32,000 nt of DNA from Candidatus Hermodarchaeota archaeon (GTDB lineage Archaea; Asgardarchaeota; Heimdallarchaeia; Hodarchaeales; Hodarchaeaceae). The stretch is from assembly GCA_048886185.1 (NCBI GenBank), contig JBHLKY010000003.1:180595-212594 (forward strand). Reading direction: 5' to 3'. This document shows positions 466 to 21,475 of the stretch, one piece after another (within the stretch, counting starts at the first letter, position 1; each line of letters opens with the position of its first letter). The notes below the pieces were generated by a model that was not told the origin of the DNA, did not search any database, and was given only the letters and a program-made list of their open reading frames with translations. A program made the translations under genes and the position numbers.

Positions 466-573
466 TGGTGGACCAGCCGAGATTCGAACTCGGGGGTTGT
501 GGATATCCAGGGGTGAATCCCATGGAAACTCCGCCTTGCGAAGACGGCGTGATACCAGCTTCACCACTGGCCC
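466..573 (-). tRNA. tRNA-Ala(CGC) with a 32-nt intron at 45/46 and encoded CCA
   Basis: Acceptor GGGCCAG/CTGGTCC with the G3:U70 alanine identity pair, D arm GTGA/TCAC, anticodon arm CCGTC-TTCGCAA-GGCGG, T arm CCGAG-TTCGAAT-CTCGG, 3' ACCA. The variable region is 37 nt, and removing 497-528 leaves AGCCC. Confidence 0.93.
497..528 (-). other. tRNA-Ala intron, non-canonical position 45/46
   Basis: TTTCCATGGGATTCACCCCTGGATATCCACAA. Internal hairpin, central helix GCGG/CCAC (one mismatch), bulges AG|T and AA|C. Confidence 0.75.
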
Positions 574-824
574 AAATTTTATAAATGTTAAAAAAATCTT
601 TTTGGAGAAGTTGGTATATGAGTTTCCTTAACATCTTTTTTTTACTACATAGTCTTTTTATCTTTTCTAAAAAATCTCCTGCTTGGTATCTTTATTCATA
701 AAAGACTCATTTCACAACCTAAAAACAAATGGCCTTAATTTGTCTTAGAAAAAGATTGTAGAATTGAAAACTTTTGTTTCAGTTAACCCTTGTATCTTCT
801 TATATGGAAAAGGGTAAATGGTGG

Positions 825-835
825 AAAAAAGAGAG
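825..835 (-). terminator. Oligo-T/pyrimidine tract after rpl12, probable archaeal terminator
   Basis: CTCTCTTTTTT on the minus strand, 6 nt after the rpl12 stop codon. Confidence 0.4.
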
Positions 836-840
836 GTTCA

Positions 841-1155
841 CTAGCCAAATAAGGAGGATAAACCAAGATCATCCCCCTCTTCTTCCTCTTCTTCTTCTGC
901 TTCTTTAGCTTTTTTTCCCTCTTTTCCCTCTTTTGAGGGTTCGGATGTACCTGAGACTCCTGGAACTGCAGCTGTCATCAGTGAAGCCCCTTTGATAGCT
1001 TCTTCAATGTTTATTGATGACAGTGTTGCTACAAGGGCCTTGATTTTTGATTCATCTGGTTTTCCACCGGCAGCCTTAATTATTGCTTCTATTCCTTTTT
1101 CAGTTACATCTTTACCTGTTGAGTGTAGAACCAGAGCAGCATGTAGATATTGCAA
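841..1155 (-). CDS. rpl12: 50S ribosomal stalk protein L12 (aP1), TTG start
   Basis: MQYLHAALVLH N-terminus, Ala/Gly/Lys hinge, acidic tail ending GDDLGLSSLFG. Confidence 0.96.
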   Translation of the reverse strand: MQYLHAALVLHSTGKDVTEKGIEAIIKAAGGKPDESKIKALVATLSSINIEEAIKGASLMTAAVPGVSGTSEPSKEGKEGKKAKEAEEEEEEEGDDLGLSSLFG

Positions 1156-1544
1156 TTATTGTCACTTCCTTATCATAATAGATCATTATTCTCTTTCGAG
1201 AATTACTAGTAAATTCTAACCATATTGTTAGCGTTTTTGCTTTATTCACACAACACATTATTAGTTAGAATTATCTTACTTCCATTTCTAGCATTTTTCA
1301 CAGTAAGTTTATCTGTGTAATGGAATAGATTCTAGCTATCTTGCAGAAAAAACTAGCCCACCTCCTACAAAAAAGCAATAGGGGTTCGTTAATAGCTATG
1401 AGAATTAATCAATAAATATATTTTAACTAGTCCCATGAAGAATACAATTTTATTTAACTTACCAATAAAAAAAATTAAAGGTTTCTTATTACCCTCCTTT
1501 TATTATAAGAGGAATTTGGGGACGGCCGGATTTGAACCGGCGAT

Positions 1545-1574
1545 TTTCGGACATCCTGCGATTAGCAGAGATGA
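1545..1574 (-). other. tRNA-Trp intron 3 (45/46), 30 nt
   Basis: Central helix TCGG/CCGA is perfect, bulges TG|T and AA|A, intron hairpin CATCTCTGC/GCAGGATG. Confidence 0.85.
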
Positions 1575-1582
1575 CACCGAGT

Positions 1583-1645
1583 TTCCTCATTTTTCCAGAA
1601 CTTCATCATGAGTTTCAGTTAACCCAGTGGAGTTCACAGGGGGTT
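1583..1645 (-). ncRNA. tRNA-Trp intron 2 (37/38), 63 nt, box C/D 2'-O-methylation guide RNA
   Basis: D' CTGA (1618-1615), C' ATGATGA (1609-1603), D ATGA (1590-1587), degenerate C CTGTGA (1639-1634). Guide GTTCTGGA pairs with pre-tRNA TCCAGAAC. Guide CACTGGGTT pairs with AACTCGGTG. Confidence 0.85.
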
Positions 1646-1664
1646 CTGGAGCCCGGCGCGATAC

Positions 1665-1696
1665 TTACCCGGTCTTATTAGAAGCTAACAAGACCA
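1665..1696 (-). other. tRNA-Trp intron 1 (D-loop 18/19), 32 nt
   Basis: 11-bp hairpin GGTCTTGTTAG/CTAATAAGACC, relaxed central helix AGCT/GGGT, bulges AG|T and AA|G. Excision restores G18G19. Confidence 0.8.
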
Positions 1697-1963
1697 CTAG
1701 CTTCGCTACGTCCCCAATGAACGCTTAATATATGGTTGTTTTCTAGGATGAGGAAGAAGGAGTTTATTTTTAATAATTTTCGGCCATTAATATAAACATT
1801 GTACCATATGTTAAAAAAATCATTCAACAGAGAGGCGCTTGACAGGATTGTTATTGATCTTGTTCTTAAAAGCAATTAATGATTTATGAAACTTACCTAG
1901 CAGAAAAAGCCTTAAAATTTTGGATACTAGGTTTCTTTGATGATATACAACGAACTACTGATG

Positions 1964-19342: not shown

Positions 19343-19864
19343 TTGAGTAGGATACAGACTTGTGAGATGTGTGGGGTCGAAGCACCAGTCACTCTCGTTG
19401 AAATTGATCATGTAGAGTTACATGCATGTCCTAAGTGTGCTAGATTTGGAAAACCTGTTATCCATAGACCCAAAAAAAGGATTTCACGGCCAATCCCTCG
19501 CCCTCAACCTCGCAAGAAATCTTCACCACAACCCATTAAAGCTCCCAAGAAAGACTTTCTTCATGATAAAATCCTAGTTGATGGCTATGGAAGCTTGATC
19601 CAAGAAGCTAGGCGCAAACAAGGATTGGGACGAGCTGAATTTGCTCAGATGATCAAAGAGAAAGAAACTTTACTCGCAAGAATTGAAGCTGAAAAGGTTC
19701 TACCTACCGATCGTATTGTAGCAAAGATTGAGCGTGAATTAGACATCGATCTGAAAACAGAAGTCGCTGACGAAGGTTCTATCATAGAAGATTTCATTCC
19801 TAAGTCCACAACAATAGGCTCTATCGCCAAAATTAAAAGAAAGAAAAGCAATAAATCTTCTTAA
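19343..19864 (+). CDS. mbf1: Archaeal multiprotein bridging factor aMBF1, TTG start
   Basis: CEMCG...CPKC Zn ribbon, HTH IQEARRKQGL...EKETLLARIE, C-terminal TTIGSIAKIK. Confidence 0.93.
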   Translation: MSRIQTCEMCGVEAPVTLVEIDHVELHACPKCARFGKPVIHRPKKRISRPIPRPQPRKKSSPQPIKAPKKDFLHDKILVDGYGSLIQEARRKQGLGRAEFAQMIKEKETLLARIEAEKVLPTDRIVAKIERELDIDLKTEVADEGSIIEDFIPKSTTIGSIAKIKRKKSNKSS

Positions 19865-20040
19865 GGCATAGAAAACTTACTGGGAATCAGAAAATCTTTC
19901 GTAAAATTTTAAGATAAACTTTAACAACTCGGGGTAAGGCCGAGATAGATGGATATTCAGAAGTTTTCGACCTCTCTTATAAAACAGATCGGTTAGATAT
20001 ACTCTCCTTACTAGCAATCACTATCAAAGAGAAGATTAAA

Positions 20041-20427
20041 TTGGTTATGCTTGACCCTCTAGCTAATGCGATGTCGACTATAGCAAATGCCGAAATACTT
20101 GGGCGTAAAGAGGCTACAATTAGACCCGCAAGTCGGATCATTGCTAATGTCCTTCGTGTGATACAGAAATATGGGACTATTGGCGAATTTGAAGTCATGG
20201 AAGATTTATGGATAATATCTGTTCAGCTCTTAGGTCGAATCTCTAAGATTGGAGTTATTAAGCCCAGATATCCTGTTAAAGTTAGAGATTATGTTGAATG
20301 GGAAAAACGTTTTCTACCTGCTCGTGATATGGGAATTTTGGTAGTTTCAACATCTGAAGGTGTAATGTCTCATCATGAAGCTAAAGAAAAAAACCTAGGT
20401 GGACGATTACTAGCCTACGTTTATTAA
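20041..20427 (+). CDS. rps8: 30S ribosomal protein S8 (uS8)
   Basis: [34 protein letters not shown]. Confidence 0.98.
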
Positions 20428-20451
20428 CTACAATTAAGGAAGTTAGTCACA

Positions 20452-21003
20452 ATGAAACACTATGCTATTGAAAGGATCGTTGAGGTACCCGAAGAAGTCA
20501 CCGCTATTTTAACTCCTATCCGTGGGGGGAAAACTGTTCAGATTAAAGGTCCAAAAGGTGAACTTTTCCGTACATTTGAACGCCTAAAAGTTCATCTTAC
20601 TTTTCACGATAACAAATTTAAAATTCAAAGTTATTTTGGTAACAAAGCAGAAGCAGCTATGGTTGGAACCATAGCAGGTCATCTCTCTAATATGATAAAA
20701 GGAGTTACAGAAGGATTTATTTACAAAGTTCGAGTGATTACTTCACACTTTCCAGCAACAGTTGAAGCTCGAAAGAATATCATACAAGTAAAAAACCTCT
20801 ATGGGAGACGAGACCCAATAAGTGTCCCTTATGATAATTCAGTTACCATTGAAATAAATGGTGACATTGTAACAATGTCTGGAATTGATATTGAAAAGGT
20901 CTCACAGACCGCTGCACGGCTAGCTGAGGCAACTCGTTTACGAGGACGACGAAGTAAAGATCCTACTGTTTTCCAAGATGGATTATATGTAGTATATCCC
21001 TAG
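20452..21003 (+). CDS. rpl6: 50S ribosomal protein L6 (uL6)
   Basis: KGPKGEL, NMIKGVTEGF, SHFP, DPTVFQDGLY. Confidence 0.97.
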   Translation: MKHYAIERIVEVPEEVTAILTPIRGGKTVQIKGPKGELFRTFERLKVHLTFHDNKFKIQSYFGNKAEAAMVGTIAGHLSNMIKGVTEGFIYKVRVITSHFPATVEARKNIIQVKNLYGRRDPISVPYDNSVTIEINGDIVTMSGIDIEKVSQTAARLAEATRLRGRRSKDPTVFQDGLYVVYP

Positions 21004-21244
21004 ATGTAAGCTGGTAAAGGGTTCTTTAGATCTATTAATCCTCTTAGATCTGAGGTAAATAGACAACTGAGTCATTATTTGTGATAGATTAGAAATTCAA
21101 CAGTCTGAATAGAGTGGATAACTAGGCAAAAAGGTTAAATAAATCGTACTAGTAAGACTAATTACAACTACAATCAACAAGTGAATTCAAATATCTACAG
21201 AAGTATTTACATCAACAGAGACCCAAAGGGCCTGTAGCTCAGTT

Positions 21245-21274
21245 AAGGGTGGTTAATTTTCTCACCCTCTGAAA
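21245..21274 (+). other. tRNA(CAT) D-loop intron (17/17a), 30 nt
   Basis: Strict BHB: central helix TCAG/CTGA, bulges TT|A and AA|T, intron stem AGGGTG/CACCCT. Confidence 0.9.
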
Positions 21275-21296
21275 TGGTTAGAGCGTCCGGCTCATA

Positions 21297-21317
21297 TAGC
21301 TCTCAATGGCTTGAGAA
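21297..21317 (+). other. tRNA(CAT) canonical intron (37/38), 21 nt
   Basis: Strict BHB: central helix CTCA/TGAG, bulges TA|T and AA|A, intron stem AGC/GCT. Confidence 0.92.
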
Positions 21318-21370
21318 ACCGGATGGTCGTGGGTTCAAATCCCCCCAGGCCCACTTCCTCGGAATAAAAA

Positions 21371-21475
21371 GGCATCATAGCTCAGTTAGGTAGAGCGTCC
21401 GGCTGTTAAAATTCTTCTCTGAAAGAATACTCAGCAGATACCGGGTGGTCGCAGGTTCAAATCCTGCTGGTGCCG
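21371..21475 (+). tRNA. tRNA-Asn(GTT) with a 31-nt canonical intron (21409-21439)
   Basis: GGCATCA/TGGTGCC acceptor with G73, TCCGG-CTGTTA|A-CCGGG anticodon arm, central helix CTGT/GCAG, GCAGG/CCTGC T stem. Confidence 0.95.

Follow-up and report, generated by a model that had tools for sequence, protein, structure and literature searches.

Disrupted tRNA genes were mapped onto the Asgard archaea by Kaneta et al. (2018, PMC5829648), for whom incomplete tRNA sets pointed to disrupted genes that had gone undetected. The same study reported that Asgard archaea have an (alpha-beta)2 tRNA splicing endonuclease (EndA) with an L1 insert, and that the Crenarchaea-specific loop and its lysine (K44) confer broad substrate specificity. 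In Atabeyarchaeia and Freyarchaeia, introns were found in 92-95% of tRNA genes (Valentin-Alvarado et al. 2024, PMC11291895). An October 2026 preprint on 90 Asgard genomes (bioRxiv 10.64898/2026.10.13.758758) described D-arm introns missed by tRNAscan-SE, counted 0.91 introns per gene as the mean of non-focal Asgard families and 2.2 in focal ones, and reported a pair of EndA paralogues for 44 of 60 genomes; its reconstruction yielded 129 gains, 71 of them on terminal branches, and no general arrival route. Here we consider a stretch of 32,000 nucleotides (nt) on contig JBHLKY010000003.1 of an Asgard draft genome, hereafter the window, in which five of six tRNA genes are interrupted by introns. 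These are very probably ordinary archaeal protein-spliced introns of the bulge-helix-bulge (BHB) type, present at high density in an Asgard archaeon of the Hodarchaeales group. The finding is a well-supported further case of the published Asgard phenomenon, with some new detail.

The genome that holds the window resembles the published Asgard genomes (PMC11291895; bioRxiv 10.64898/2026.10.13.758758) in its multiple and non-canonical introns, which lie mostly in the D arm, at 37/38 and in the T arm. As in those genomes, many introns are missed by standard annotators, gains and losses occur between close relatives, there is no copying between tRNA types, and the predicted EndA is of the (alpha-beta)2 form. 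It differs in its lower load, an average of 1.23 introns per tRNA gene, with 79% of the genes interrupted, versus about 2.2 and 92-97%; the former value lies above the preprint's non-focal mean and below its focal one. The modal intron length is also different, about 30-31 nt here versus a median of 22-23 nt there, and so is the host, a Hodarchaeales-type genus; within Heimdallarchaeia, several lineages have less than one intron per gene according to the preprint. The tRNA genes of Thermoproteales with several introns (Sugahara 2008; Fujishima 2010, as cited in later work) share with the present genes the 59/60, D-arm and 45/46 sites, relaxed BHB motifs, and a heterotetrameric EndA with the Crenarchaea-specific loop. 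Introns of Thermoproteales form sequence families across tRNA types, whereas here sharing occurs only within isoacceptor pairs.

Interrupted tRNA genes in the window and the genome

The original prediction, made from the letters of the window, was that its six tRNA genes carry eight introns in five genes, that five introns are non-canonical with lengths of 32, 32, 30, 30 and 30 nt, and that seven of the eight end in AA. All of this was confirmed by a permissive Rfam search combined with a custom cloverleaf-plus-intron parser, which recovered the six genes and the eight introns at the places first proposed. The parser carries out a cloverleaf search, arm by arm and with T-arm introns included, that permits inserts whose ends can pair as a BHB central helix, with a threshold of at least three of four central pairs. 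Two of the non-canonical introns lie in the D loop, one at 21/22 and two at 45/46, and the single intron that does not end in AA is that of tRNA-Asn. Standard ARAGORN reported only tRNA-Val in the window and Rfam at the gathering score reported three genes; at the permissive threshold, Rfam also detected tRNA-Ala, its 32-nt insert included, and gave a weak match resembling tRNA-Ser. The genes and introns are as follows.

469-573, minus strand: tRNA-Ala(CGC), 105 nt, 73 nt when spliced; Rfam tRNA 49.8 bits, the 32-nt insert lying in the variable region, and parser; orthologues in 17 congeners
497-528, minus strand: Ala intron, 32 nt, at 45/46; ends CCAC-AA; central helix 3/4 pairs
1517-1715, minus strand: tRNA-Trp(CCA), 199 nt, or 74 nt without its three introns; parser
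1665-1696, minus strand: Trp intron 1, 32 nt, D loop at about 18/19; T, hairpin GGTCTT...AAGACC, GGGT and AA; central helix 3/4
1583-1645, minus strand: Trp intron 2, 63 nt, canonical 37/38; central helix 3/4
1545-1574, minus strand: Trp intron 3, 30 nt, at 45/46; T, hairpin, CCGA and AA; CCGA pairs 4/4 with positions 40-43
14461-14535, plus strand: tRNA-Val(GAC), no intron; ARAGORN, and Rfam 58 bits
14644-14755, minus strand: tRNA-Ser(GCU); weak Rfam match with a D-arm insert, and parser
14704-14733, minus strand: Ser intron, 30 nt, at 21/22; ends ACAG-AA; central helix 3/4
21228-21353, plus strand: CAU tRNA, probably tRNA-Ile2; Rfam 46.6 bits with two inserts, and parser
21245-21274, plus strand: CAU intron 1, 30 nt, D loop at 17/17a; A, hairpin AGGGTG...CACCCT, CTGA and AA; CTGA pairs 4/4 with TCAG
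21297-21317, plus strand: CAU intron 2, 21 nt, canonical 37/38, AA end; central helix 4/4; parser
21371-21475, plus strand: tRNA-Asn(GUU); Rfam 58.2 bits
21409-21439, plus strand: Asn intron, 31 nt, canonical 37/38, AT end; GCAG pairs with C32-U35; central helix 4/4; permissive Rfam and parser

The CAU tRNA is probably tRNA-Ile2 because an initiator and an elongator tRNA-Met are encoded elsewhere in the genome. For the Ala intron, site 45/46 was preferred to the alternative 49/50 on the strength of the relatives' variable loop (AGCCC) and of a 73-nt intronless gene in congener G011. The mismatches originally noted in several central helices were seen again, with three of four pairs in the Ala, Trp D-loop and Ser introns and all four in the Trp 45/46 and CAU D-loop introns.

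Once the stated inserts are taken out, cloverleaves with sensible anticodons form for the eight introns of the window and likewise for the 59 found genome-wide. As judged by sequence comparison, the strongest proof of the intron boundaries is given by uninterrupted orthologues in sister species, which were found when 30 relatives were searched with four interrupted loci and the fetched loci were parsed. These orthologues match the predicted spliced products: the 83-nt tRNA-Ser(GCU) gene of G010 at 82 of 83 positions and the 74-nt tRNA-Asn genes of G001 and G016 at 71 of 74. In G011, an uninterrupted 75-nt CAU gene and the 73-nt tRNA-Ala(CGC) gene have the lengths predicted for the spliced products.

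We then consider the window against the whole genome, a draft of 4.84 Mb in 75 contigs with about 35% G+C, 96% completeness and about 5% contamination. The host is an Asgard archaeon of the Hodarchaeales/Heimdallarchaeia group: its catalytic EndA subunit is 76-86% identical to proteins of metagenome-assembled genomes labelled Candidatus Hodarchaeota, Heimdallarchaeota or Promethearchaeota. Hidden tRNA genes were located by anchoring on the T arm and acceptor stem, by BLAST with mature isoacceptor sequences and by direct reading of candidate loci. The census comprised 48 tRNA genes, in which each of the 46 archaeal anticodons is represented, by one gene apiece apart from two extra tRNA-Gln genes; 38 of the 48 were interrupted, by 59 introns in total. 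This census is a lower bound in one respect, in that the parser needs at least three central pairs, and the introns of tRNA-Ile(GAU) and initiator tRNA-Met were assigned by hand. Canonical position 37/38 held 26 introns, the D-arm region (8/9 to 23/24) 18, position 59/60 ten, positions 43-46 four and position 30/31 one, after one reassignment in which the first tRNA-Glu(UUC) intron was moved out of 37/38. Non-canonical introns thus number 33 of 59, and few or only canonical introns in the rest of the genome, the finding that would have spoken against the original prediction, were not what the census returned. Two or more introns were present in 15 genes, with a maximum of four in an elongator-type tRNA-Met (C3:58767-58987). 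Because all 46 anticodons were found, each in a single copy except for the two extra tRNA-Gln genes, the interrupted genes must be the working copies. On the whole genome, the Rfam tRNA model found 22 of the 48 genes and ARAGORN without intron search 11. GC-rich islands were also tried as a route to hidden tRNA genes and dropped, the 558 islands being nearly all coding.

Several further observations were made during the census. Contig C3 (258 kb), which holds the window, carries 23 of the 48 tRNA genes, a strong clustering. The four tRNA-Gln genes (C12:160175-160364; C3:137779-137892; C14:26675-26781) are the sole anticodon redundancy; two are intronless neighbours on C12 and the other two have 37/38 introns of 41 and 34 nt. 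Given the contamination of about 5%, one tRNA-Gln pair may be of foreign origin. Initiator tRNA-Met (C14:55186-55280, minus strand) has A1-U72, a 19-nt intron at 37/38 and an irregular T-stem (GATGG/CCTCC) with two mismatches, which may reflect a bulged base or an assembly error.

BHB geometry, the splicing endonuclease and the Trp intron

In the BHB motif, each of the two strands of a 4-bp helix is followed by a 3-nt bulge, which is cut behind its second base. A minimal BHB intron therefore starts with one base, the third of the 5' bulge, continues with the hairpin that forms the inner helix and then with four exon-pairing bases, and finishes with two bases of the 3' bulge. The pattern of one nucleotide, hairpin, exon-pairing tetramer and AA that the original prediction had read as a stereotyped design is indeed present in the window introns, but as a special design it does not stand, being dictated by BHB geometry: the design is the BHB motif itself, and no new kind of intron is involved. 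The favoured non-canonical sites are placed with respect to a stem just as 37/38 is. Position 59/60 is the structural twin of 37/38, lying after the sixth base of the T loop with the T-stem as outer helix. The 3' end is TGAAA or CGGAAAA in each of the ten 59/60 introns, because the tetramer pairs with the conserved T54-A57 while the T-stem serves as outer helix.

The 59/60 introns are each 29-32 nt long and lie outside the window, on contigs C3, C8 and C14 (for example C8:168265-168366, C14:61692-61795 and C3:148245-148379). Their hosts are tRNA-Gly(CCC), all three tRNA-Thr, tRNA-Ala(UGC), tRNA-Pro(CGG), tRNA-Ser(CGA), both tRNA-Glu and elongator tRNA-Met.

Two properties of the introns are not set by geometry. 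One is length, with 22 of 32 non-canonical introns at 29-33 nt versus 10 of 27 at 37/38 (classes as they stood before the tRNA-Glu(UUC) reassignment). The other is an A-rich 3' bulge: AA ends were found in 29 of 59 introns and a penultimate A in 49 of 59, at an intron A content of 0.33. The central helix had four of four pairs in 29 introns and three of four in 28, counts to be read with the parser's demand for at least three pairs and with the frequency at which three of four arise by chance. For the Trp D-loop intron, the cut is fixed only to within 1-3 nt, the central helix being weak and weaker still in relatives. A strict BHB motif was rejected for this intron, since RNAalifold on 12 species returned a 2x4 internal loop instead of two 3-nt bulges and no register was better.

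The enzyme that would cut such motifs is encoded by two EndA paralogue genes on contig C8 (C8:46774-47280 and C8:79611-80096), and both proteins contain PF02778 and PF01974, the EndA N- and C-terminal domains, according to Pfam. The alpha protein (P0001) matched the catalytic subunit of Aeropyrum pernix (3P1Z_B) over its full length with an E-value of 2e-41. When aligned on this subunit, it keeps the Tyr-His-Lys triad (...FAVYRRGPGIDHSPF...SVRKRY...), and its loop GIRKPKSPRFDRP aligns without gaps on the Crenarchaea-specific loop DVEKPRGADFEGP, with K40 on A. pernix K44. The beta protein (P0002) has Ser or Ile at the position of the catalytic His of M. jannaschii EndA, and its nearest matches are the ARMAN-2 enzyme and the EndA-like structural unit of M. 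kandleri. The likeness to the (alpha-beta)2 enzyme of A. pernix (PDB 3P1Z / 3AJV) thus covers the full length, triad, loop and K44-position lysine of the catalytic subunit, whereas P0002 matches the A. pernix structural subunit weakly (E 0.08) and is nearer the epsilon-type ARMAN-2 enzyme and the M. kandleri unit. The presence of a broad-specificity endonuclease in this lineage had been proposed without the genes in hand; two subunits, with triad, loop and lysine in alpha, support a predicted broad-specificity (alpha-beta)2 architecture.

Taken with the intron structures, these proteins suggest how the introns would be removed. In the folded pre-tRNA, the four exon bases that immediately precede the 5' cut would pair with the four intron bases that immediately precede the 3' cut; each cut site would be held in a 3-nt bulge, with the remaining intron as a hairpin. 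The heterotetrameric (alpha-beta)2 endonuclease, with the Crenarchaea-specific (L1) loop on its catalytic subunit, would then cleave at the two bulges, after which a ligase would seal the exons together. Both cleavage at these sites and the range of substrates the enzyme accepts are inferred from gene structure and residues.

Support for folding was found in the tRNA-Trp gene, for which the full-length 199-nt match was recovered at 79-92% identity in at least 12 congeneric genomes, with three introns kept at the same lengths. In the hairpin of Trp intron 1, several pairs switch from UA to CG on both sides across species, and these compensatory changes support a folded intron. Intron 3 was present in every congener with a fully recovered gene.

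Trp intron 2 (1583-1645) shows exon-level conservation throughout the genus, its alignment being nearly free of substitutions. In archaea such as Haloferax volcanii, the intron of pre-tRNA-Trp is a box C/D guide for 2'-O-methylation of C34. The present intron contains CTGA...TGATGA, with degenerate outer boxes (GTGA, ATGA); GTTCTGGA is the complement of TCCAG|AAC, which spans the 5' splice junction, and C34 is paired by the fifth base upstream of the D-like box ATGA. These sequence features make it a probable box C/D guide for C34. It shares with the H. volcanii guide intron the exon-like conservation, the TGATGA/CTGA pair and a guide that places C34 fifth upstream of a D-like box, and it differs in its degenerate outer boxes and in that a second methylation target, although looked for, was not found here. 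A permissive Rfam scan returned no family for this stretch.

Intron turnover among congeners and competing explanations

In the other interrupted genes of the window, intron content varied among congeners. The Ser 21/22 intron is missing from the 83-nt orthologues of G006, G007, G008 and G010, the Asn 37/38 intron is missing from the 74-nt genes of G001 and G016, and, of the congeners scored, 9 have CAU intron 1 and 5 do not. The states found for each gene were as follows.

tRNA-Asn(GUU): zero to three introns (D loop, 37/38, 59/60)
tRNA-Ser(GCU): six states, namely none; 21/22; 37/38; 21/22 and 37/38; 59/60; variable arm
tRNA-Ala(CGC): none; 45/46 of 32 nt; 45/46 of 21 nt; D loop; D loop and 45/46; D loop and 37/38
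CAU tRNA: none; 37/38; D loop and 37/38

In all, 12 sites in these four genes vary in intron presence, with at least 29 state changes on the tree, a rough number given that the tree was built from the 3-kb flanks of the Trp locus in 13 species and is a single-locus tree with weak nodes. Very close species still differ, as do G003, G007 and G008 among themselves and G010 from G014. The results support turnover of introns at the species level within the genus. Because intron presence differs between species of one genus, introns must be gained, lost or exchanged over short time scales. Of the active intron gain originally proposed, the turnover was thus observed, but gain as its direction was not shown: the data are compatible with insertion, precise loss or allele exchange and do not decide among them.

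Two observations concern possible gain or spread of introns. The tRNA-Trp gene of G006 (L051) has a fourth intron of 31 nt at 59/60, found in no other genome searched and thus a candidate recent gain. The adjoining CAU and Asn genes (21228-21475; orthologous loci L085-L102) have a near-identical D arm, and several congeners have a D-loop intron in each of the two genes, at matching sites and with the shared ends TAGG...CTCTGAA. One route of intron spread could be gene conversion between these neighbours; the match between their introns is confined to the ends, which pairing constrains.

How the patchy distribution arose can be read in more than one way. It is possible, if on the whole doubtful, that it stems mainly from homologous exchange of intron-plus and intron-minus alleles or from repeated precise loss, with little or no ongoing insertion. 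Exons are near-identical between species and would allow recombination, several sites need three or four state changes on the tree, which shuffling or loss fits as easily as repeated gain, and tRNA-Trp retains all three of its introns throughout the genus. Yet sites unique to one species or pair look recent (G011 with Ser 59/60, G001 and G016 with the Ser variable arm, G006 with Trp 59/60), and in other Asgard classes 71 of the preprint's 129 high-confidence gains map to terminal branches (bioRxiv 10.64898/2026.10.13.758758). A much less probable account makes the 30-32-nt introns copies of one mobile family spreading between tRNA genes, as proposed for Thermoproteales, with length and AA end inherited by descent. 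The tight lengths would suit it, both for the non-canonical introns as a class and for the ten at 59/60, as would the near-identical CAU and Asn D arms with their same-site introns. In an all-versus-all comparison of the 59 introns of the genome, however, only isoacceptor pairs beat shuffled sequences (Glu CUC/UUC at 59/60 with 94% and Thr CGU/UGU at 59/60 with 77% identity), six pairs reached 70% identity versus 1-3 in shuffles, and families across tRNA types of the Thermoproteales kind were not found. In the Glu and the Thr pair, the intron is shared by descent. Shared 3' ends are in any case forced by exon pairing (TGAA with T54-A57, CTGA with TCAG in the D loop), and families across isotypes make up 1.5% of Asgard introns versus 28% in Thermoproteales (bioRxiv 10.64898/2026.10.13.758758).

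That the inserts are artefacts of metagenome assembly, or that the genes are decayed pseudogenes with working tRNAs elsewhere, is scarcely credible. A 75-contig draft with about 5% contamination, most of whose tRNA genes are missed by standard finders, might invite such a suspicion, but up to 17 congeners that were assembled independently, single-contig genomes among them, have these interrupted genes too; conserved exons stand next to introns with variable loops and co-varying stems, and 44 of the 46 anticodons have no second copy.

Protein-spliced BHB introns are our very probable explanation, and some points weigh against it. The counts of central pairs are partly circular, as the parser required at least three of four and a helix of that quality is common by chance. 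No register gave a convincing motif for the introns at about 43/44 in tRNA-Ile(GAU) and tRNA-Glu(UUC) or for the relatives' Trp D-loop intron. The species tree used to count turnover rests on one weakly supported 3-kb locus, and a search for public RNA runs covering positions 12000-21999 of the window found none listed.

Meaning for tRNA introns in the Asgard archaea

Few archaea are placed as near to the eukaryotes as Hodarchaeales, and it is from the archaeal enzyme that the tRNA splicing endonuclease of eukaryotes is descended. The phenomenon in general has been published before, and the value of the present case lies in added detail and in a good study system. For annotation it carries a warning, as standard finders miss most tRNA genes of this genome. 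For biochemistry, the introns provide a relaxed substrate set for an Asgard EndA, and the natural intron-plus and intron-minus alleles are material on how such introns arise and vanish. We also consider, as a tentative and rather unlikely extension, that the BHB hairpin of about 30 nt is a generic, repeatedly arising insert, with fast turnover, that can settle after the sixth base of any tRNA loop, at 43-46 and perhaps in mRNAs. If this were true, a genus near the eukaryotic stem would offer a natural system for how protein-spliced introns enter genes.

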